Notes under the pieces: model-generated
Seen by the model: the letters and a program-made list of their open reading frames with translations, nothing else
Told to the model about the DNA's origin: nothing
Databases searched by the model: none
Shown: piece after piece, positions 19,302-31,399 of the stretch
Layout of the letters: every line of letters starts with the position of its first letter
Position numbering within the stretch: position 1 is the stretch's first letter
Made by a program: the position numbers and the translations under genes
Origin: Promethearchaeia archaeon
GTDB lineage: Archaea > Asgardarchaeota > Lokiarchaeia > Sigyniarchaeales > SOKP01
DNA: 64,000 nt
Reading direction: 5' to 3'
Assembly (NCBI GenBank): GCA_029856145.1
Contig: JAHQWK010000031.1
Location: 1 to 64,000, forward strand

Positions 19302-19823
19302 TTGGTGATAATCATCAGAGAAGAAACAGACTATACTGAAGCAATCGAGGCGTACAAAAATGAACCCCTCGTGATTTTAGAACCGTGGGGTAGAAGTATT
19401 GATCATTTAAGACTTACCATTATTGGGAAAAAGGGAACCCCATATTCAGAAGGCAAGTTTGTATTTGAGATAAAATTCCCTGAAAATTACCCTTTCGCTC
19501 CTCCTTACGCATACGCAGTGACTTTAATGTGGCACCCTAATATTGATTCTTCAATTCCACCGGGAAAATTAAATATCTGTTTAGATTTAATTAATCCAGA
19601 TTTAGTAGGAAAAGTAGATGCTAGCACAGGAGCTTCTGGTTGGACTCCAAGCAAAACACTCACAAATATTATAGAAGCATTAAAGGGTATGATGCATGTT
19701 GAACCTCCCTTCTTTAATCCAGGAGATCCATTAAATCATGAGGCGGGAGAGCAATACTTTAGAGCTCAGAAAAAATTCGAGGCGAAAGCTGCCGCCTGGA
19801 CTAAGAAGTATAGCATGGACTAA
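19302..19823 (+). CDS. ubiquitin-conjugating enzyme E2
   Basis: GTPYSEGKF, YPFAPP, WHPNI, catalytic ICLDL, WTPS, PLNHEA and WTKKY. Confidence 0.95.
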   Translation: MVIIIREETDYTEAIEAYKNEPLVILEPWGRSIDHLRLTIIGKKGTPYSEGKFVFEIKFPENYPFAPPYAYAVTLMWHPNIDSSIPPGKLNICLDLINPDLVGKVDASTGASGWTPSKTLTNIIEALKGMMHVEPPFFNPGDPLNHEAGEQYFRAQKKFEAKAAAWTKKYSMD

Positions 19824-19915
19824 AGGATATTAATTATTTTTTATCTTCTATTTTTATTTTTTAAGTTTTAATAATTTTGGTGCAAAATATTAAAGATATC
19901 ACCTTATAGATTAAT

Positions 19916-20521
19916 ATGAATGTTTCATTCAAGAACACAGAGGTCATAGTTTTCGATTTAGATGGAACAATCGTTAATTTAACAGCTGATTGGATGTCTT
20001 TAAGAGACATTTTAGTTGAGATGTATAGAGAACAATATAAGGAAGATTGTAATTTTGAAAGGGTTTCAACCTGCCTTAATGAAATTGTCCAAAAAGAAGA
20101 TGAGGAAACCTTACAAGACTTTATTAGTGTCATTCGGGAGTATGAGCTTGAAAACATAAAGGATACCCAACTTATCGAAGAGACTATTTATTTCATTAGT
20201 AACAAAGAGTTATTTGGCGTCAATAGTGAAGTAAAATTTGCAATACTATCACTTAACACTAGAAGTACTATAATACGAGCTTTAGAACTCGCAAATATCT
20301 ATGATAAAATAGATCTTATAGTAGGTAGGGAAGATGTGAGGAGATGGAAACCTGCACCAGATGGTCTTTTAAAGATTCAAGAATATTTTAAGATGAAAAA
20401 GGAAGAGATGATCTACTTCGGAGATTTGGAGAAAGATGTTCTAACGGGTAAAAATGCTGGAATAGAGGCATACTTAATAGATGAGTTAATAGAACTAGTA
20501 AAGAAAAAACATACATACTAA
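19916..20521 (+). CDS. HAD family hydrolase (phosphoglycolate phosphatase-like)
   Basis: FDLDGT, KPAP and GDLEKD motifs. Confidence 0.9.
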   Translation: MNVSFKNTEVIVFDLDGTIVNLTADWMSLRDILVEMYREQYKEDCNFERVSTCLNEIVQKEDEETLQDFISVIREYELENIKDTQLIEETIYFISNKELFGVNSEVKFAILSLNTRSTIIRALELANIYDKIDLIVGREDVRRWKPAPDGLLKIQEYFKMKKEEMIYFGDLEKDVLTGKNAGIEAYLIDELIELVKKKHTY

Positions 20522-20552
20522 TAAAAGTTTAGCACTCTTTTTTCAAGTCTTT

Positions 20553-21107
20553 CTATACTTTTATAAAATTAAAAACCTCATCTATCCTCTCAACAAATTT
20601 AAATAAACCTATGCTAGATATTTTTCCTACTATTTCATCATCTTTAAAATGATGATCATCTACTGAGAGCCACCCCTCTTTTGTTAAAACACGGTGTAAC
20701 TCTTTTAAAATACTCTCTGTATCTGAGAGATCATGATAAATATCTAATAATAAAACGACATCGATTATGTTATCTTCTAAACTCGTATCGCAATCAGTTA
20801 AAATAGTTTCAACATTTTTAAGGTTCTTTTCTTTTGCCCTCTTTTTTACCTCTTCGATTGCTAAAGGATGAATATCAGCAGCATAGACTTTTCCTGTGTT
20901 ACCAACAACCTCTGCTGCCGTAATTGAGTAGCTACCTGGCCCACAACCATAATCTAGTACAATACTCCCCTTTTTAATTTTGGTTTTCTCGATTTTATTT
21001 ATTGGGGGATATTTCTTATCACGTTTTTTAAAATGTTTTTCCATAAACTTAAAATGTGTATTACCCATTGGCTTATCTTTTTTAGATTTTTCTTGAATTG
21101 CTAACAC
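20553..21107 (-). CDS. class I SAM-dependent methyltransferase
   Basis: VLDYGCGPG, VYAADI and ELHRVL motifs. Confidence 0.9.
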   Translation of the reverse strand: MLAIQEKSKKDKPMGNTHFKFMEKHFKKRDKKYPPINKIEKTKIKKGSIVLDYGCGPGSYSITAAEVVGNTGKVYAADIHPLAIEEVKKRAKEKNLKNVETILTDCDTSLEDNIIDVVLLLDIYHDLSDTESILKELHRVLTKEGWLSVDDHHFKDDEIVGKISSIGLFKFVERIDEVFNFIKV

Positions 21108-21146
21108 CTCTTTTGAGATATAAGTATTAATATAAAAAAAAAATTA

Positions 21147-22739
21147 TTACATAAAAGTGATTATAACGTTATATTTTTTAATTTCTGATTCTGTGAGGGC
21201 CTTTCCTAAAGGAGTTATACTAATAATATCGTTACTTTTTATTTTTAATGAAGTCAATTTAACATCTGGATCTTTCATTGAAGGCATATAAGGATTCCAA
21301 TAGATTTCTTTAGTCATTGGATTGGTTATCATCCATAATTCTGGATCTAATTCATAACCAGTTATTTTCATTGCGTTAAAAATATAACCCACATCTGCAT
21401 CAAATGGTACAACAATCTGCACATTTTCTTCACCTTCAATTTTTCCACAAGCAAGGCAATCCTCCCTTTTTATAATATTCAAATGATCGAATTGTCCATA
21501 TATCCCATTATAATTTACATAAGGAGGATCCATTGGTGCTCCAATATTCCTACCATTAACCCTAAATAGTAGTTTTAAGGTTTCTTGAGATTGGATACTT
21601 GCTATAACAGAGCTGACTGTTTGTATTGCAGCGATTTTATTTCCAAGAATATTTTCCATTTCTTCAAATTTATAGTCTGGTCCAAAAGTTTCTTTTATAT
21701 TTTGTTTCCATTCCTCAATTTCTTCTTCATTTAATGTCTCTCTTTTTTCTTCGGGTAAATTTTCATTAAAGACTCTTTCTCTTAATTTTTCTAACTCTAC
21801 TTGAGCTAATTCCTTGAATTTAAGTACTTCATCATCTAAATTAAGATCTGGTTTATGGCCATAACTTTTTTCAAAATTTACTTCAGCTTTTATGACACAA
21901 TGATTTCGATTACGTGGTAAGCCTTTTAATGTGCATGCTGCGACGAGTTTATCATCAGCAGGAGGTATTGGTACTAAACACCTATAACAAGGAGTTTGGT
22001 CTAATAATTGAGGAGCATATTTCCAATCAAAAACCATTTCAATTTCTTTTCGAAACCTTTTAATTAATGGTGATATTTTCTCTGCTTTTATCCTTTCAAT
22101 TTCTTCTTCCAATTCTTCTATTCTTCTCTGTGCTTCAAAGTAATTAGGATATTCCCTTTCTGTTATTTCCCAAAGTCTGGCTTCGACTAAATTCTCTATC
22201 TCTCTTTCTTTTTTTTTATATTGTAATTCAGAACCTTCAGGAATTACAATCTGTACATGACCCTCAAAAGCATGCGTAGCTCCTTCGACCATAGGTTTTT
22301 TTAGTCGAAGACATATTTTATTTAAGTCTAATCTAGCATTAAAATTGTCTAAGGCAGCAACTACTATATCAGATTCTTCATAAACAGACATTGGTAATTT
22401 TTGAAGCTTCTCAAAATAATAGTCGACCTTGAGATAAGGATTCATCTCCTTCAATTTTTCAGCGGCAACTTCAGCTTTAGGACGACCCTCATCACCAGGT
22501 TTGAAAAGCATTTGTCGTGATAAATTGGATGTTTCAATAGTGTCTAGATCAACAAGAATCAGTTTCCCAATTCCCATAAGAGCGAAATCTTTAGCTATTT
22601 CGCAACCTAAGGCGCCTACACCAATTATCATAATAGTTCCCTTGTCTATAATCTCTTGATCCCAGCCATCAATTAATTGTTGACGGGCATACATTCGTGC
22701 CTTAACAATATCCTCAGTTTTATCAGTCATATTAAACAA
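21147..22739 (-). CDS. ubiquitin-like activating enzyme E1 (UBA3/UBA2-like single subunit)
   Basis: GVGALG, DLDTIETSNLSRQ and ALDN motifs. Zn pairs CYRC/CLAC. Catalytic ACTLKGLPRNRNHC. C-terminal ubiquitin-fold-like domain. Confidence 0.92.
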   Translation of the reverse strand: MFNMTDKTEDIVKARMYARQQLIDGWDQEIIDKGTIMIIGVGALGCEIAKDFALMGIGKLILVDLDTIETSNLSRQMLFKPGDEGRPKAEVAAEKLKEMNPYLKVDYYFEKLQKLPMSVYEESDIVVAALDNFNARLDLNKICLRLKKPMVEGATHAFEGHVQIVIPEGSELQYKKKEREIENLVEARLWEITEREYPNYFEAQRRIEELEEEIERIKAEKISPLIKRFRKEIEMVFDWKYAPQLLDQTPCYRCLVPIPPADDKLVAACTLKGLPRNRNHCVIKAEVNFEKSYGHKPDLNLDDEVLKFKELAQVELEKLRERVFNENLPEEKRETLNEEEIEEWKQNIKETFGPDYKFEEMENILGNKIAAIQTVSSVIASIQSQETLKLLFRVNGRNIGAPMDPPYVNYNGIYGQFDHLNIIKREDCLACGKIEGEENVQIVVPFDADVGYIFNAMKITGYELDPELWMITNPMTKEIYWNPYMPSMKDPDVKLTSLKIKSNDIISITPLGKALTESEIKKYNVIITFM

Positions 22740-22878
22740 ATCTTATTTTTTATGATTATAATATTATTATTTCAAATTCAAAATATAAACTCTTTTAGTT
22801 GCTTTCTTACTAACAAAAAGTAATTAAGATTAGTAATAATCACTTTTAAACTTAATAAGATAGAAATAGATAAATAAT

Positions 22879-25800
22879 TCACTTTTTCTTCTTTTCAGTT
22901 GCTTCTTTAATCATTTTTTTAAGGCTATCAACTTTTTCTCTCTCTTTAGCTTCCTCTAATTTTTCTTGGAAATCTCTTTTCCCATCTTCCTTCTTCGCTA
23001 TTTCATCCATAAGTTCTTGTTTAATTTTTATTAAATTTGTCATCTCCTTGCGAAAGTCTCTTGCTTTAGCTTTAACCTTTATTTTTTGCTCTGATTCCGC
23101 TAATTTTTGTTCTTTTCGACTTTCTTCAATCAAACTTATTATATTATCCGCTAATTCACCAACTTCTCCAAGTGTCTCTTTTAATTCAGCTCCTTCTTTT
23201 TCTCTACGCTTTAATTCTAAAGATCTTTGTTCTTCTAATTGTTCTTGAATGCCTTTGATTCTCACTTCTTCTTTAATAACTCTTTCTTCTAATCTCTTAG
23301 TATTTTTAATTTCTGTTTCAATATATTTTATTTCTTCATCCCAACCAATTTCTTTGAACTTAGTGATGGCAGAGTTAAAAATTTCATATGATTTGTCAAA
23401 ATCATGGTATGCTGCCCATTTTTTCCCTTCATCAATAAGTTTTAATCCATCATCTCTTATCTGTTCCGCTTGCTGCCTTTTAATAACCAAATCTCTATAT
23501 TGACTTTCTTGTTCTCGTTTCATTCTTTCTTGCTCTAATCGTCTTCTTCTCACTTCTTCTTGAAATATAGCATATTCATTTTCCCTCTGTAAGCGTACTT
23601 GTTCCTCCAATCGTCTCTTTTCAAGAAAATTAGTTTGTTCTTGTTGCAGATCCTTAATTAATGTATCTAAATTTCTAATTTCAGGTTCCCAGCCAATATT
23701 TTCTGCTAAAATGTGTCTTGCTTGAATATATAATGAAATTGCTTCATTGTAGTTAGGTATATGATGTCTCAAATATTTTCCCGCTTCTTCTAACAGAGAA
23801 TATGCTGATTCCCTCACACTCATTTGTTTTTGTATTATTTTTTCTCGCTCCTGAAGAGCTAATTGCTGAGCTTCCTTTTTTTCCCTTTCTTGCCTCTTTC
23901 TTTCCTCAATAAGCATAGATAATGCTCTTTCTTCATCTAGTTTTTCTAATTCTTTGTGAACTTCTAAATTTTCTAATTCAATTTTTTGATTTTTCAATTT
24001 ATTAATCTTAAATATCATGTTGCTAATTGAATCAGTTGGAAATTGCATCTCATTTAATATAATTCCTGCTCTTCTATAACATATTACTGCATTATCATAA
24101 TTTTGTTCTTTTAGAAATTTTTCTGCCTCATCTAAAATCTTGAATGCTTGTTCCTTTCTCTCTTCCAGTCTTGATTTCAATTCTTCCATTTTAAATATTT
24201 CCAATTCCTTTCCTTTCAATCGTTCTTGTTCAACCCGTAAATTTTCTGCCATTTTTTGTTGAAGTTCCCATTCTTCTCGTTCTTTTTGCGTTCTTAATTT
24301 TAAGTCATTTTGCTTTTGTAGTTGAGATTCTCTTTTTTTCTCTTGGACTTTAAGTATTAATTCTCTGATAGTATCAGTTGGAAAGGCAATTTCATTTAAT
24401 ATTAATTCAGCTGCATGGTAGTATTCGAGAGTTTTATCATATTGTAATTGTTTCATATAAATTTCTGCTTCTTCAAGAAGACTGAAAGCTTGATCTTTCC
24501 TTTTTTCCATAAAAGCATGAGATTCTTTTTGAGTCTCAATTTCTATCTGTTTAGCTTTCAATTTAATCTCATTAATCTTCATATTTTTTGTTATCTGTTG
24601 TTGGAAATTAAATTCTTCTTGAGCTTGTTGAAGTTGAATCTCTAGGTTCTTTTGTTTTGTTATCAATTCTTCCTTAATTTTTTCCTGAACCTTATGAATC
24701 ATTTCTCTAATCGAGCTTGTAGGAAACCCAATTTCATTTAATATCAATTCTGCTTGCCTATATTGTTCAATTGCTCGGTTATATTGCTTTTGATTAAAAA
24801 AATTTTCAGCAGTGGATAAGATTTCAAATGCTTCTGTTTTGCGCGTTTCCATTAATTGTTTTATTTTTTCTTGTTTTTGGATTTCTATTTTTTTTGTTTT
24901 TAATCTTTCTTGTTCTCTTCGCATATAATTAGAAATTTTTTTCTGGAATTGTTCTTCTTCATGTTCTCGTTGCTTTAATGATTCAATTTCAAATTCTTTC
25001 TCTCTTTCTATATCCCTTTTTCTAACTTCAATTGCTTTTATAGTGTCTTGAAGCAGCTTTAAATAATCACTTGTCCACCCAATTTCAGATAGGAAATTCA
25101 TGGCAATTTGATAGTTCTGTAATGCATTATCATAATTCTTTTGATGAAGTAAAGTATATCCGTTATCAATGAGTTTAAAAGCTTCTTGCTCTTTTTCTAA
25201 ATTTTGAGTAGTAAGTAATTCTTTCTTTTGAAATCTTTCTCTTTCTTCTAGTGCTTTTATTCTTTCACTCTCTCTTAAAATTCTTATTTTTTCCATGAAA
25301 GCGTAGTTTTGTTTTTCCTTTTCTATTGCTTCGCTGATAGATTTCTGTTTTATCAAGTCCTTTTCTCTTTTCTTCCCTTCAATATCTTTTATTGCTTTAT
25401 TTATGATTGGAATTTCTTTAGTCCATTGAATCTGAGCAAAAATATTAGCAACACTTTGATAAAGTTCAATCGCATCATCTAATTTACCTAAGGAAATATA
25501 ATTTTGAGTTTTTTCTAATATATTAAATGCTTCTTCCTTCCTAGTTTCCCTGTAAGCAAGTTCTTTTTCTCTTTCTCTAAGTGTGATTTCTTTTCTCTTT
25601 AACTCTTCACGTTGTGATTTCATTTCTCTAATAAGTTTTTCTTGAAACACTCTCTCTTGTTTTTCCTTTTCTATAGATGATTGTAAATTTTGTTGCTTTC
25701 TAATCTCAGCTTCTCGCTTTTTATCCTCAACTGCAATAATGGAATTTTGAATTAATTCTATTTCTTCATCCCACTCAATGACTCCAAAAATGTCTGTTGC

Positions 25801-28800
25801 TTTATGATATAACTTAATTGCTTCATCATAATTTCCTTGTTCAATTTGTTGTTGAGCTTCTTCAAGCACATTAAATGCTTTTTCTTTTTCCTGTTCTTGG
25901 ATTATTCTTAATTCTTCTTCTTTCTTTAGTTTCTCTTGCTTTTCTCTCATTTTGTGTTCTTCAAATTCTATTTTCTTTAGAATTTGCTTTTGAAATAGCT
26001 CTTCTTCTTGCTCTCTTCTTATTTTTAATTCTAATTCTTTAAATCGATTTAAATCCTCTTCTCTCTTTTTCTCATGAATTTTTGAAATCATCTCTCCAAT
26101 AGCTCCCGTGGGGAAATTAATTTGATTTAATATTAATTCTGCTTTATGGTAATTTTCAATTGACTTTTCGTATTCTCCTTGAATTAATAGAGTTTGCGCA
26201 TCATCCATTATCTTAAACGCTTCTGACTTACATTCTTCCATAAGTTTTACTAAATCTTCTCTTTTTTGTATGACTATTTTTTTTTCTTGTAGTTTTTTCT
26301 GTTCTTTAAGCATATATTCACTAATTTTCTTTTGAAACAAATCTTCCTCTTTTTGACGTTTTAATGAGATCTCAAAATCTTTTTGTTTTTCCTTCTCTTT
26401 CTCTTTCTCTCTTATTTTGATTGTTTGAATTATCTCATTTAATAATTTTAAATATCGTTCCTCCCAACCAATATCTTTTAGAAGGTCTATGGCTTTATTA
26501 TAATTAGCTATAGCGTTATTGAAACTTTCTTCTTCAAAGAGTTTGTCTCCACTTTCTATTAAACTAAATGCTTTTTGCTGTTTAGCTAAATTTTGGGCAG
26601 AAAGTTGTTTTTGTTTTTCAAATACTTCTTTCTCTTTCAAGAGTTCTGTTTTTTCTCTTTCTGTTTGATATCGTATCCGTTCAATAAATGCTCTATCTTC
26701 AGCTTCTTTTCTAATTGCCTTCTGTAAAAGCTTTTGTTTATTAAATTCATCTTGCCTTTTTTTATCTTCAATAGAATGGATTGCTTCTTGGATTATTGGG
26801 ATTTCTTCAGTCCATTGAATCTGAGCGAACATATTTGCTACATTGTAGTAAATTTGAAGGGCATCATCAATCTTTCTTTGAAAAAGGAAATCCTGAGCCA
26901 TTTCCAGTAAGTCAAAAGCTTCTTGTTTCTTTCTTTCACGATATGCAAGTTCTTTTTCCTTTTCTCTAAGTACAATCTCTCTTTTCATTAATTTATAATG
27001 TTGAACTTTCATTTCTTTTGTGATACGTTCTTGAAATGCTTTTTCTTGTTTTTCACGCTCTAATTCTGCTTGAAATTTAATTTGATTTTGTATATCTTCT
27101 TCCTTCTTTTTATTTTCAATCTCTACTATAGAATTTTGGATGAGATTGATTTCATTCTGCCATTGAGCATCAGCAAAAAAGTTAATAGCATATTGAAGTA
27201 TTTCAATAGCTTTATCGAAATTACCTTCTTTAACATTATTTTGTGATTCTTCGAGTAATTTAAAACCTGCTTTTCTTCTTTCTTCACGATATTTTGATTC
27301 TTTCTCACGTTCCATTAATTCAATTTTCTTTTTCTTTAATTGTTCACGTTCTTGCTGTAAATATTTTGAGATTTGTTTTTGAAACTCTTCATCTTTCTTT
27401 TGTCTTTCAATAGTGTCTTTTAATTCTTTCTTTTTCAGGATGTTCTGTTTTCTTTTTAGTTCTTCAACATCTCTTATTGAATCTTCAATTATTGGAACTT
27501 CTTCAGCCCATTGAATTTCGGCAAATATATTTGCGGCATTCTGATAATTTAAGATCGTATTATCATAATCACCTTTTTTTAGGAAATCTATAGCATAATC
27601 TAAGAATTCAAAGGCAACATTTTTCCTATGTTCAAATAATTTGATCTCTTCTTCACGATCTTTAATAACGATTTCTTTCTTTTTTAAGCGATCACGTTCT
27701 TTATTTATTTGAGTAGCTATTTGCTTCTGAAAATCTAATTCTTCTCTGCTTCTTTCCTCTAATTTCTTTTGATCTTCATATTTCTTGCTAAGCTGTGAGT
27801 GTTTAAGCTTTTCTACGTTTGAGATTGTATTTTGAATCATAGATCTATAAGGTTCCCAACTGGGCCCTAAATCTGTGAGGATTGGTAAAGCTTTATAATA
27901 TATATTTATAGCCTCTTCAAAATTCTTTCCCTTTAGAATTTCATCTGCTTTATCTAATATTTTAAACAGATCTTCTTCTTTCCTTACGTCATCTCTCCTT
28001 TTTTCTTCATAATCACTTCTTTTTTTGTCTAATTCTTTTGCGGATTCAATGAATTGGTCCTTTTGTTTTTGATATATTGAATCTTGAAGTGTTCTTAAAT
28101 CTCTTTGTCTTTTCTCTTTTAATTGATTAGAGATTTCTTCTCGGTTTTGTTTATTTTTTACATTTTCAATTAAATTTGTAATTGGTTGGATATATGAATC
28201 CCACTCTATCGATCTAAGAAGTCGAACTGCTTGATTTAATTTATCAATTGCTTGATCATATCTTTTTTCTCTTTCAAGCCTATTTCCAATATCTATTAAA
28301 TTAAATGCTTTAAGTTGAATATCTTCCTCATGTCTTTTCTTCGTTACAAAATCAATTAATCTTTCTTTTTTCAGTTCTGCCTCTTTTTCTAAAATAATTT
28401 TCTGTTCTTCAATGTCACTTGTCAATGGTAATGGCTTCTCTACTTGATGAGCCTCAAATTCTAATTTACCTTTCTTAAGCGTTTCAATTAATGTTTGAAT
28501 TTTTTGAATTTGAACATTCCAACCAATAGAATTCAATAATTCCACAGCCCTTTCATAGTTCATTATCGCGTTATCAAATTTCCTATCTTTTTCAAACATT
28601 TTAGCAGCATCAATATGAGCAAATGCCTCATCTTGTATGTTTTCTTCATGTTGTTTCTTTGTCCTAAACTTCTCTAGGATTTCTGCTTTTTCGACACTAC
28701 TTTTTTGCCCAAACATGCCAACAACTTGGGGTTTCTCATCAGGAACTATTTGACGTACTTCTTTTTTTAATTCAGTTTCCTGTCGTTGATATTGTTGATC

Positions 28801-29247
28801 ATATTTTTGTTGTTCTGACTCTCTTGCAAGCTCATTAATTTTTGATTTTAAATTCTCTAATTGGCTTTCAGTCCAACCGGCATCAGCTAACAAATTAATA
28901 GCAGATAAGTATTGCTGAATAGAATCTTCAAAAAAACCATCAAATTCCAACTTCTTCGCTCCTTCTAGTAAAGTAAAAGCTTGATCTTGTAATTGCTCAA
29001 TTTGTGCTTTAGTTTGAGTTCGCTGATATAATGTTTCTTTTTGAATAAAATCTTTTAATTCGCCAATTCTATCATAAATTTCTTGAATTCGATGCATCAA
29101 AAATCCACTTTGTTTAAGAAAATCAGCTGCTCTTTGATAATTTGAGATTGCTTCTTCTATATTTTTCTCTCCTTCAAATTTTTGAGCAATTTCTAACAAT
29201 TTTAAAGCTTCTTGTGCTAAAGCTTCAGGATTCTGCATTTTTAACAA
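22879..29247 (-). CDS. giant helical repeat protein (18 MIT/TPR-like modules joined by charged helices)
   Basis: 2122 aa. Eighteen copies of AF.LL..A......g.y..Ai..Y..A..il..igW at ~116-aa spacing, separated by E/K/R/Q-rich helices. Confidence 0.85.
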   Translation of the reverse strand: MLKMQNPEALAQEALKLLEIAQKFEGEKNIEEAISNYQRAADFLKQSGFLMHRIQEIYDRIGELKDFIQKETLYQRTQTKAQIEQLQDQAFTLLEGAKKLEFDGFFEDSIQQYLSAINLLADAGWTESQLENLKSKINELARESEQQKYDQQYQRQETELKKEVRQIVPDEKPQVVGMFGQKSSVEKAEILEKFRTKKQHEENIQDEAFAHIDAAKMFEKDRKFDNAIMNYERAVELLNSIGWNVQIQKIQTLIETLKKGKLEFEAHQVEKPLPLTSDIEEQKIILEKEAELKKERLIDFVTKKRHEEDIQLKAFNLIDIGNRLEREKRYDQAIDKLNQAVRLLRSIEWDSYIQPITNLIENVKNKQNREEISNQLKEKRQRDLRTLQDSIYQKQKDQFIESAKELDKKRSDYEEKRRDDVRKEEDLFKILDKADEILKGKNFEEAINIYYKALPILTDLGPSWEPYRSMIQNTISNVEKLKHSQLSKKYEDQKKLEERSREELDFQKQIATQINKERDRLKKKEIVIKDREEEIKLFEHRKNVAFEFLDYAIDFLKKGDYDNTILNYQNAANIFAEIQWAEEVPIIEDSIRDVEELKRKQNILKKKELKDTIERQKKDEEFQKQISKYLQQEREQLKKKKIELMEREKESKYREERRKAGFKLLEESQNNVKEGNFDKAIEILQYAINFFADAQWQNEINLIQNSIVEIENKKKEEDIQNQIKFQAELEREKQEKAFQERITKEMKVQHYKLMKREIVLREKEKELAYRERKKQEAFDLLEMAQDFLFQRKIDDALQIYYNVANMFAQIQWTEEIPIIQEAIHSIEDKKRQDEFNKQKLLQKAIRKEAEDRAFIERIRYQTEREKTELLKEKEVFEKQKQLSAQNLAKQQKAFSLIESGDKLFEEESFNNAIANYNKAIDLLKDIGWEERYLKLLNEIIQTIKIREKEKEKEKQKDFEISLKRQKEEDLFQKKISEYMLKEQKKLQEKKIVIQKREDLVKLMEECKSEAFKIMDDAQTLLIQGEYEKSIENYHKAELILNQINFPTGAIGEMISKIHEKKREEDLNRFKELELKIRREQEEELFQKQILKKIEFEEHKMREKQEKLKKEEELRIIQEQEKEKAFNVLEEAQQQIEQGNYDEAIKLYHKATDIFGVIEWDEEIELIQNSIIAVEDKKREAEIRKQQNLQSSIEKEKQERVFQEKLIREMKSQREELKRKEITLREREKELAYRETRKEEAFNILEKTQNYISLGKLDDAIELYQSVANIFAQIQWTKEIPIINKAIKDIEGKKREKDLIKQKSISEAIEKEKQNYAFMEKIRILRESERIKALEERERFQKKELLTTQNLEKEQEAFKLIDNGYTLLHQKNYDNALQNYQIAMNFLSEIGWTSDYLKLLQDTIKAIEVRKRDIEREKEFEIESLKQREHEEEQFQKKISNYMRREQERLKTKKIEIQKQEKIKQLMETRKTEAFEILSTAENFFNQKQYNRAIEQYRQAELILNEIGFPTSSIREMIHKVQEKIKEELITKQKNLEIQLQQAQEEFNFQQQITKNMKINEIKLKAKQIEIETQKESHAFMEKRKDQAFSLLEEAEIYMKQLQYDKTLEYYHAAELILNEIAFPTDTIRELILKVQEKKRESQLQKQNDLKLRTQKEREEWELQQKMAENLRVEQERLKGKELEIFKMEELKSRLEERKEQAFKILDEAEKFLKEQNYDNAVICYRRAGIILNEMQFPTDSISNMIFKINKLKNQKIELENLEVHKELEKLDEERALSMLIEERKRQEREKKEAQQLALQEREKIIQKQMSVRESAYSLLEEAGKYLRHHIPNYNEAISLYIQARHILAENIGWEPEIRNLDTLIKDLQQEQTNFLEKRRLEEQVRLQRENEYAIFQEEVRRRRLEQERMKREQESQYRDLVIKRQQAEQIRDDGLKLIDEGKKWAAYHDFDKSYEIFNSAITKFKEIGWDEEIKYIETEIKNTKRLEERVIKEEVRIKGIQEQLEEQRSLELKRREKEGAELKETLGEVGELADNIISLIEESRKEQKLAESEQKIKVKAKARDFRKEMTNLIKIKQELMDEIAKKEDGKRDFQEKLEEAKEREKVDSLKKMIKEATEKKKK

Positions 29248-29443: not shown

Positions 29444-31399
29444 ATGGAAATAAAAGAAAAAAGTATACTTATAGATTTTGAACCAATTTCAAGAAGGTTG
29501 TATGTTTCAAAAGAGAGCTCTATCTATGAATTATTAAATGAAATCAATATACCAATTAGATCTGTCTGTGGAGGATTAGGAAAATGTGGAAAATGCAAAA
29601 TTTTAGTTCAGAAAGGCCATGAATATCTGATTGGTCCAACTAGTAACGAACAAAATTTAATAAATGAAACAGAAATTGAAAATGGATGGCGTTTGGCTTG
29701 TGAAACGAAAATTAAAATAAGTATTAAACCACAATTAACCAAGGCTCAAACACCTCAGATCAGAATTTTTTTACCTAGTCAACTATTACTTGAAGATTTT
29801 AAGATTCTTACTTCAGGTATTAGTAAAAGTATAAAATTACAACCAACTATCGAAAAAATTTTCTTAAATGTAAAAAAACCATCATTAGAAGAACCTAATG
29901 CAGATTTTGAAAGAATAGAAAAAGAAATTATCCCTAAAATAAAAAATTTTAAGAAAAATAACAAGATTAGTATTGATTTTAATATTTTGAATGATATCCC
30001 GAATATCCTAAGAAAAAACCATCATAAAATCACATCAGTTTTATGGAATAACAGTAATATTATTGCTTGTGAGCCTGGTAATACGATTGAAAGCAACTTT
30101 GGTATTGCTTTTGATATTGGTACAACCACAATAGTAGGTTATTTATTAAATTTGAATAACAGTAAAATTTATGCTGTGGATTCAAAATTGAATAGCCAAA
30201 CCGCTTATGGGGAGGATTTGATAACAAGGTTAACATATATAAAAGAAAATAAAGAGAATCTTAACAAATTAAATTCTGCAGTAATAAATGATTTGAATGA
30301 GATTATTTCAAACCTATGTCGCAAGGCAAATATCAAACCTTCTCATGTTTATGAGGCCACAGTTGTAGGAAATTCTGTTATGCATCACATATTTTTAGGT
30401 TTAGATCCCGTTAACATTGGATTAAGTCCCTTTATTCCAGTTATTCAAAAAGATTTAAATGTTAAGGCAGAGAAGTTAAGACTTAAAATCTCCAAAAATG
30501 GAAATGTTTATACCGCGCCTATTATTGCGGGATTTGTTGGGGCTGATACTATTGGTGTAATACTCTCTTCACAAATTTATAATGAAAGACCACTTACTTT
30601 AACAATAGATATTGGTACTAATGGTGAAATAATTATTGGCAACCGAAACGGTCTATTTGTTGGTTCCTGTGCAGCAGGATCTGCTTTAGAAGGTGCACAT
30701 ATTGACGATGGAATGAGAGCTGCTGCGGGGGCTATAGATACTATTAAGATTGACACACAGAATTTAGATGTTTCTTATACAACAATTAAAAATAAGAAAC
30801 CAATGGGTATTTGTGGATCTGGATTAGTTGATGGTATAGCTGAGATGTTAAAATCGAAAATTATTACAAGAAGTGGCAATTTCAATCGAGAACTTATTGA
30901 TCAAGAAAGATTTATCAAAAAAGATAAAGAAATAAAATTTATTATTGTTGGTAAAGAAGAAACATCTATAGGTAAAGAAATTTCAATTAGTCAGAGTGAT
31001 GTACGCCAAATTCAAATGGCAAAAGCAGCTTTCTATTCTGGAATGCGAATTATTTTAAGTCATCTAAGAAAAAGTCTAAATATTGAGCAAATTTTCCTAG
31101 CAGGAGCTTTTGGGAATTATATCAATGCCCATAATGCAAAATTCATAGGCATGATCCCCGATATTCATGATAATAAAATTTTTCAAATAGGAAATGCTGC
31201 TGGAATTGGAGCACAACACTGTTTATTAAATAAAAATTTAAGAAATAAAGCACAAAGTCTTTTAAGCAAAATTAAATATGTCGAAATTGCCGTAGAAAAA
31301 AATTTTCAAAAAGAATACGTTGAAGCAATGTATTTTCCTCATTTAAACCTTGATTTTTTTCCAAATTTGCTTGAATATAGGGATATCCCTAAAAGATAA
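29444..31399 (+). CDS. ASKHA-domain reductive activator of corrinoid proteins (RACE/RACo type) with N-terminal [2Fe-2S]
   Basis: CGGLGKCGKC...RLAC, DIGTTT, DIGTNGE, GICGSG, LAGAFG and GNAA motifs. Confidence 0.93.
   Translation: MEIKEKSILIDFEPISRRLYVSKESSIYELLNEINIPIRSVCGGLGKCGKCKILVQKGHEYLIGPTSNEQNLINETEIENGWRLACETKIKISIKPQLTKAQTPQIRIFLPSQLLLEDFKILTSGISKSIKLQPTIEKIFLNVKKPSLEEPNADFERIEKEIIPKIKNFKKNNKISIDFNILNDIPNILRKNHHKITSVLWNNSNIIACEPGNTIESNFGIAFDIGTTTIVGYLLNLNNSKIYAVDSKLNSQTAYGEDLITRLTYIKENKENLNKLNSAVINDLNEIISNLCRKANIKPSHVYEATVVGNSVMHHIFLGLDPVNIGLSPFIPVIQKDLNVKAEKLRLKISKNGNVYTAPIIAGFVGADTIGVILSSQIYNERPLTLTIDIGTNGEIIIGNRNGLFVGSCAAGSALEGAHIDDGMRAAAGAIDTIKIDTQNLDVSYTTIKNKKPMGICGSGLVDGIAEMLKSKIITRSGNFNRELIDQERFIKKDKEIKFIIVGKEETSIGKEISISQSDVRQIQMAKAAFYSGMRIILSHLRKSLNIEQIFLAGAFGNYINAHNAKFIGMIPDIHDNKIFQIGNAAGIGAQHCLLNKNLRNKAQSLLSKIKYVEIAVEKNFQKEYVEAMYFPHLNLDFFPNLLEYRDIPKR

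Follow-up and report, generated by a model that had tools for sequence, protein, structure and literature searches.

The stretch analysed here (the window) comprises 64,000 nucleotides of a Promethearchaeia archaeon, positions 1 to 64,000 of contig JAHQWK010000031.1, and carries on its minus strand, at 22879-29247, a single open frame of 2122 codons that encodes a giant repetitive protein. This protein is built from 18 small helical modules joined by connecting helices of residue-exact length, and we consider it rather probable that it works as a length-defining rod or scaffold that remains in register, either with itself or with some periodic partner. In particular, the structural models are consistent with a cytoplasmic, all-helical rod of MIT/TPR-type bundles with spectrin-like connectivity. 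An initial annotation, made from the sequence, had described 18 MIT-like three-helix bundles on charged-helix spacers and had proposed a periodic scaffold or ruler. The latter idea is supported by two observations detailed below, namely a fixed distance of 71 residues between bundles and a variation of length by whole modules.

The modules were located by eye at residues ~37, 114, 231 and so on up to 1950. An independent profile, built from 12 modules in each of 8 genomes (alignment A1, 96 rows), recovers all of them (18/18, E 2e-49 to 1e-5), and the count given at the outset is therefore borne out. The general pattern of the module is A.F.LL..A....L.....YD.AI..Y..A..IL.EI, followed by a turn and then by I..I...I..IE.KKRE. 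The turn is of the W type, with FP in modules 10 and 14-16 and G-F in module 1; the combination of the helix-1/helix-2 pattern with a W or FP turn, as originally noticed, is found in every module except the first. The repeat unit measures ~116 amino acids (aa), and pairwise identity between the modules of the giant is only 20-50%. Moreover, modules 7-10 are paralogous to modules 11-14 and represent a duplicated four-module block.

The spacing of these divergent modules is strictly conserved. The period was measured in 120 relatives (2083 module matches) from the helix-3 core residue I99 to the helix-1 core residue F54 of the next module, and 1501 intervals show a distance of exactly 71 residues; the others, head-specific ones included, spread from 30 to 77. 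Inside the bundle, the distance from F54 to I99 varies from 43 to 48 by loop indels. In other words, insertions and deletions are allowed in the loops and excluded from the connecting helix. Orthologues within the genus, at 55-79% identity, show 1-4 internal gaps per 2120 residues. Between genera, length shifts mainly by whole modules, and the resulting classes, which differ by blocks of ~4-6 modules, contain 14 modules (~1641 aa), 18 modules (~2120 aa), 20 modules (~2335 aa) and 25 modules (2927 aa), alongside shorter proteins of ~1078 and 625 aa; the comparison of repeat counts across relatives, suggested in the initial annotation, thus yields whole-module classes. These classes share the block period pattern 116, 116, 116, 117, 114, and the compared forms of 9-25 modules all keep the head (modules 1-2, period 76) and a tail of 142 aa. 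The residue-exact connecting helix, together with the whole-module classes, indicates that spacing, and probably helical phase, matter. In the wider superfamily there are lines that keep a rigid period of their own (58, 66, 78, 116, 120 or 127 aa), as seen in the proteins P0130, P0133, P0158, P0183 and P0261, whose periods are 78, 116, 127, 66 and 58 aa, respectively. The 127-aa line exceeds 116 aa by exactly 11 residues, corresponding to three helical turns, which hints that helical phase is kept when spacers change length.

The predicted fold offers a structural counterpart to this regularity. A first AlphaFold2 model was computed with the 96-row alignment for module 11 and both its flanking spacers (aa 1072-1232), and reached a mean predicted local distance difference test score (pLDDT) of 91.2. 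It contains three helices (2-65, 69-85 and 89-160), of which the second is only 17 aa long, while helices 1 and 3 continue straight into the spacers with no break; the bundle proper, formed by helices 48-65, 69-85 and 89-106+ (model numbering), is ~18 residues long. A second model covers the four modules 7-10 (aa 610-1118). For this model, a MAFFT alignment of overlapping four-module windows (A2) added little depth, as it was matched by offset and not by module homology. The four-module model has a pLDDT of 78 and a predicted template modelling score (pTM) of 0.28, the latter being expected for an extended chain, and displays three-helix bundles in all four modules as well as unbroken connecting helices at 88-180 and 321-414, of 93 and 94 residues. 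In neither model do the modules stack into a TPR solenoid, and the comparison of the four-module model with solved structures gives no global solenoid-like match, every large alignment having a root-mean-square deviation (rmsd) above 40 Å. A stacked solenoid, which the initial annotation had named as evidence against its reading, is not what the models show: they give isolated three-helix bundles joined by continuous helices. The periodic, spectrin-like connectivity that it had proposed finds confirmation in these unbroken helices and in the fixed 71-residue distance between bundles. As a separate observation, Foldseek ranks first, for the four-module model, a chain from the 96-nm repeat of axonemal doublet microtubules (9y6s_6y, E 9e-3, probability 0.99, rmsd >40 Å), with further matches to 8glv_Lf and 8j07_d3, also with rmsd >40 Å. 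A hinge at the spacer ends reading LSAQNL or LLTTQNL was considered and rejected, the sole break in the models lying elsewhere.

The spacers are 49-59 aa long, except for the 18 aa between modules 1 and 2. They are composed of 47% E+K+R (50% with D), 12% Q and 26% I/L/M/F/V/W/Y, and the density of opposite-charge pairs at i/i+4 is 0.04-0.29 per residue. Across the 96 units, the conserved hydrophobic spacer columns F130, I134, M138, L145 and L152 (model numbering) fall within an arc of 80 degrees, according to geometry worked out by hand, and form a one-sided ridge ~3.4 nm long. Specifically, in the spacer of module 11 the ridge consists of F1201, L1205, M1209, L1216 and L1223, with I1221 being a further hydrophobic column on another face. 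A canonical a/d coiled coil was rejected for the spacers, since with heptads assigned by eye only an 'a'-type stripe every seven residues fits. Single-alpha-helix (SAH) domains of the ER/K type are characterized by a very high content of E, K and R, a scarcity of hydrophobic residues and closely spaced pairs of opposite charge at i/i+4. Of the spacers as first described, the charged character stands, but they are not purely E/K/R, given the large hydrophobics in conserved columns, and the proposal that they are rigid single alpha-helices is not supported, because composition, charge-pair density and conserved ridge do not fit the classic ER/K type. The same data bear on the view of the giant as monomeric beads on a string, in which free SAH spacers would act as an entropic or elastic spring and the modules as ligand-free stabilising knots. 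This view, which we hold to be unlikely, agrees with the isolated continuous helices devoid of intrachain packing in the AlphaFold2 models and with the abundance of E, K, R and Q in the spacers; however, besides composition, pair density and the one-face hydrophobic columns, it is countered by the conservation of spacer sequence, beyond composition, between orthologues (at the greatest distance, 49% identity in spacers against 60% in bundles) and by a length fixed to the residue, for which a spring has no need.

The identity of the modules was approached by several routes. The whole giant scores 79.9 bits against the Pfam MIT family (PF04212, cut-off 30) and 46-48 bits against TPR_2, TPR_11 and TPR_1. 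No single module reaches the 30 bits of the MIT cut-off, the best being module 1 (26.4) and module 11 (24.7); sub-threshold MIT matches occur in 12/18 modules and involve mostly profile positions 2-36 of 66. In structural searches with the single-unit model, the best Foldseek matches are the MIT domains of VPS4A/B, NRBF2, Sulfolobus CdvC, katanin p60 and calpain-7, all at E 0.1-1, the best geometry being that of the NRBF2 MIT structures 4zey and 2crb (probability 0.99-1.00, rmsd 2.2-2.3 Å, 75 columns). VIA, an aligner independent of Foldseek, gives Z-scores of 10.2-10.6 for the TPR proteins LGN, Pins and SMYD3 and of 9.8, 9.5, 9.4 and 9.2 for the MIT domains of katanin, MITD1, 2w2u and VPS4A, in practice a tie between the two folds. 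Searched against the PDB, the module profile finds consensus TPR proteins through a stretch of 22 residues, and the VPS4A MIT domain at E 0.015. Compared by hhalign with a profile of the lineage's own Vps4 N-terminal MIT domain, built from 26 genomes of the order, it aligns with 88.6% probability over 39 columns, covering helices 1-2 and the turn only, and these two helices are probably homologous to the Vps4 MIT domain. The ESM Atlas look-alikes of the giant are only TPR-labelled clusters, with scores <0.9. The term MIT-like used in the initial annotation is only partly supported: the whole-protein score passes the cut-off and no module taken singly does, Foldseek ranks MIT domains first at E 0.1-1, VIA ties the two folds, and the hhalign match extends over helices 1-2 and the turn only. 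Each module may fairly be called an orphan three-helix bundle of the '1.5-TPR' kind, with the MIT type of fold, and the modules are probably related to both MIT and TPR domains.

Two functional interpretations follow the two sides of this kinship. The giant might be an ordinary TPR adaptor with no special architecture, in line with its database annotation and with the TPR matches in Pfam (~47 bits), among consensus proteins of the PDB and in the ESM Atlas; this is very hard to reconcile with one helix pair plus cap every 116 aa, with pairs set apart by a 71-residue helix, with the lack of stacking in the AlphaFold2 models and with the confinement of the TPR matches to 22 residues, and we give it little credit. 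Alternatively, 18 working MIT domains might bind the C-terminal MIM helices of the two ESCRT-III proteins of the host and so template or bundle their polymers, making the giant a multivalent organiser of ESCRT-III. The whole-protein Pfam score, the MIT domains at the head of the Foldseek list and the hhalign result all speak for such a role, as do the C-terminal helices of both host ESCRT-III proteins, LEKELNRLK and LKDEIDKLR, which are MIM1-like by the MIM1 consensus. Against it stand the failure of any module to reach the MIT cut-off alone, matches that involve mostly helices 1-2, which TPRs share, and the structural tie between the two folds. In addition, no genomic association of the giant with ESCRT genes was found in the host genome: the Snf7-family genes (C22:63568 and C9:414931) and Vps4 (C22:64376) lie on other contigs, away from the giant on C31. 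The distribution is also narrow, the module profile being detected in 40/40 genomes of the host's family, in 2/3 of the sister family and in 0/158 genomes searched in the phylum's other 25 families. It is known that MIM elements of ESCRT-III bind the H2/H3 or H1/H3 groove of MIT domains, but MIT folds also bind non-ESCRT partners, and some, such as those of ULK1/2, do not bind ESCRT-III (PMC9477494). Because of the missing gene linkage and the narrow distribution in particular, the role in ESCRT-III organisation is weakened and appears quite improbable to us.

The length-defining rod or scaffold that we favour can be pictured as follows. Each bundle's third helix would run on without interruption for ~93 residues and become the first helix of the following bundle; at 1.5 Å per residue, the 71 residues would span 10.7 nm, giving ~11 nm per unit and ~190-200 nm for a straight molecule. 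The connecting helices are probably not free single helices, because of their content of large hydrophobics and the conserved one-sided ridge, and may pack on another copy of the giant, in a coiled-coil-like or ridge-into-groove manner, or on a periodic partner. An antiparallel pair, with each bundle docked on the ridge of the partner chain, would be geometrically self-consistent. If register has to be kept along a long series of modules, the exclusion of indels from the connecting helix would be accounted for. The head and the tail would serve as end-specific attachment parts and the central array as an expandable shaft.

A more specific proposal, which we advance as speculative and doubtful in its entirety, is that of a self- or filament-registering molecular ruler. 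The groove of each bundle would accommodate an amphipathic helix, either the spacer ridge of a neighbour or a site on a polymer with an ~11-nm repeat; the genus-specific number of modules (14, 18, 20 or 25) would set a cellular dimension of ~150-280 nm, and the head and the MIM1-like, poly-lysine C-terminus would provide the anchoring. Insertion of the ridge of a neighbouring chain into the groove would lead to antiparallel pairs or cables, and the alternative ligand would recur at ~11-nm intervals along a cytoskeletal polymer. An actin-like filament, following F-actin geometry, would rise by ~11 nm over four subunits.

A number of points weigh against a rod of defined length. AlphaFold2 breaks one of the three modelled spacers, at aa 862-868, where pLDDT falls below 50, and hinges may therefore exist in the rod. 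Spacers 2 and 3, in which Pro and Gly occur, are probably non-helical linkers. The oligomeric state, the straightness and the real length of the molecule are all inferred, and the fixed repeat length could in principle arise from requirements of monomer folding or stability, not from register with a partner. As regards expression, a sequencing-run lookup lists no RNA run holding the gene, and the exact short contigs at 22639-22824, 25715-25962 and 28065-28320, which come from a library labelled as metatranscriptomic and flagged 'probably DNA', are a weak hint of transcription.

The reality of so long a repetitive gene deserves attention. Pieces 2.0-2.2 kb long, on contigs from an independent metagenome study, together cover it and show 0-1 differences. 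Ten genomes of the genus carry it, and when the eight full-length copies were aligned, 1-4 internal gaps appeared along the whole protein; the giant is therefore a real gene and not an assembly artefact. Metagenomes from marine sediment and the subsurface, obtained in several studies, contain the gene in near-identical form. The open frame (22879..29247, with the stop codon at 22879-22881) begins at a TTG at 29247. An identical database entry of 2119 aa begins, like the orthologues, with MQNPE at the ATG at 29238, three codons after the TTG, and for this reason the real start is probably this ATG, giving a protein of 2119 aa. The initial annotation was right in reporting neither a transmembrane segment, the maximum Kyte-Doolittle mean over 19 residues being 0.7, nor an enzyme domain, for which Pfam and NCBIfam scans were negative. 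The only NCBIfam hit is a far sub-threshold, compositional match to Amuc_1098 (30.8 bits, cut-off 750), and a phmmer search of the whole giant against PDB sequences returns no match. Database labels for the giant and its relatives are 'hypothetical' or 'tetratricopeptide repeat protein'.

Along the minus strand, the conserved head corresponds to 28816..29223 and includes bundles 1 (aa 9-67) and 2 (aa 86-144), separated by the 18-aa spacer and repeating with a period of 76-77 aa. Spacer 2, with its Pro and Gly residues, contains the motif PQVVGMFGQK (28702..28731), semi-conserved as PQ[VI]V.[AM]FG.K across several length classes, which may be a linear binding motif. Next come bundle 3 (aa 203-261, 28465..28641), bundle 4 (aa 312-370, 28138..28314), bundle 5 (aa 422-480, 27808..27984) and bundle 6 (aa 540-598, 27454..27630). 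The four-module block of modules 7-10, modelled as a single piece, occupies 25894..27420. Its second copy starts with module 11 (bundle aa 1119-1177), modelled with both flanking spacers at pLDDT 91 (25552..26034), and proceeds with modules 12-14 (24505..25545; bundles aa 1235-1293, 1351-1409 and 1468-1526). Modules 15-18 follow at 23308..24507, with bundles at aa 1581-1639, 1696-1754, 1814-1872 and 1922-1980, and the conserved 142-aa helical tail at 22882..23307. Within the tail are found the motifs GEVxxLAxxIxxLIE (23125-23169) and FRKEMxxLIKIKQEL (23011-23055) and the extreme C-terminus VDSLKKMIKEATEKKKK (22882-22932). This last sequence is kept as [LI]x[KR]M[IL]K[ED]...KKK in the compared forms of 9-25 modules and is loosely similar to the MIM1-type helices in which both ESCRT-III proteins of the genome end; it could be an MIT-binding or a membrane- or polyanion-binding end.

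By the profile searches described above, the giant family appears to occur only in one Asgard order, and its named database entries derive from Asgard metagenome-assembled genomes labelled Promethearchaeota or Lokiarchaeota. The wider superfamily comprises 290 cluster representatives at E<=1e-10. Closed genomes of sister families encode relatives of 671-2551 aa, and Promethearchaeum syntrophicum has one of 2547 aa, DSAG12_01611. The host genome itself holds a second giant of like design, of 1525 aa (contig C9, L048:2425-7002, minus strand), with the module core C.YP..I.IY......GW and periods of ~116-126 aa. The first module of this protein lies above the Pfam MIT cut-off (31.3 bits), its gene adjoins others whose translations resemble a proteasome alpha subunit and a Ras-like GTPase, and DSAG12_01611 is closer to it than to the giant of 2119-2122 residues.

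Neighbours of the giant gene encode RACo, a ubiquitin-type E1, a methyltransferase, a HAD hydrolase and an E2. In the loci checked, the giant is a positional orthologue across the family, situated between a divergently transcribed RACo gene and the E1 gene, and other genera have, between giant and E1, a subtilase gene read from the opposite strand. The order RACo, giant, (subtilase), E1, methyltransferase, HAD, E2 is kept across genera (in the window, 19302-22739 and 29444-31399; L039-L046), and the 625-aa short form of the sister family is also near RACo. An operon with the ubiquitin E1 was considered and rejected, as the opposite-strand subtilase intervenes in other genera; for the same reason the giant appears to be monocistronic, and little about its function can be read from the synteny. 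The conserved association with RACo and E1 is most simply explained by shared ancestry.

Among known organisms, eukaryotes have their closest relatives in the Asgard archaea, and how these organise cell shape and protrusions is little understood. A literature search, including a term search within the ESCRT-diversity paper, found no paper describing the giant or DSAG12_01611. The building block is known, but the searches found no description of an architecture in which 18 MIT-type bundles follow each other at a constant helical spacing of 71 residues and the number of modules depends on the genus. A conserved rod of ~0.2 micrometres, with a residue-exact period and genus-specific length classes, would qualify as a possible ruler or tether of the cytoskeleton, and would exemplify the spectrin/nebulin design principle outside eukaryotes, realised with MIT/TPR-type bundles. 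The prediction that length is proportional to module number can be tested by electron microscopy and cryo-electron tomography, because distant relatives exist in the closed genomes of sister families and in Promethearchaeum syntrophicum.

Among known systems, ER/K SAH domains resemble the giant in having long charged helices that stand alone in the monomer model, but the spacers described here differ by their E+K+R content of 47%, their large hydrophobics and their conserved ridge. In TPR solenoids, 34-aa helix pairs are consecutive and stacked, whereas the giant has one helix pair and a cap per 116 aa. As in the unit of the giant, the last helix of the MIT-type bundle of NRBF2/Atg38 passes into a long helix, and the coiled coil of NRBF2 dimerises; NRBF2/Atg38 is, however, a single unit and the giant a periodic array. 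Nebulin-type rulers consist of fixed-period modules arranged in super-repeats, with length set by whole modules, and the giant likewise combines many simple modules, a strict period, super-repeats and whole-module length variation, although the two have no sequence or fold relation and a filament partner of the giant is hypothetical. Rods of spectrin repeats, as in spectrin, nesprin and bacterial EzrA, are alike in construction, being long rods built by repeat duplication from tandem three-helix bundles of ~106-116 aa with a continuous inter-repeat helix (PMC3646009). In spectrin, all three helices span the whole repeat, whereas the second helix of the giant's unit has only 17 aa, so that the bundle extends over ~18 residues and leaves ~55 residues of connecting helix with no support in the monomer; the Pfam spectrin family PF00435 gives no match in the giant at E<=1. 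Finally, the MIT domains of Vps4/CdvC, katanin p60, MITD1 and calpain-7 are, like the modules of the giant, free-standing three-helix bundles of ~60 aa with TPR-like packing, but helix 3 is not aligned between them and no single module passes the Pfam cut-off. The human MIT proteins that were screened carry one MIT domain or a tandem pair each (PMC9477494), whereas the giant carries 18 bundles, each of which continues into long helices on either side.

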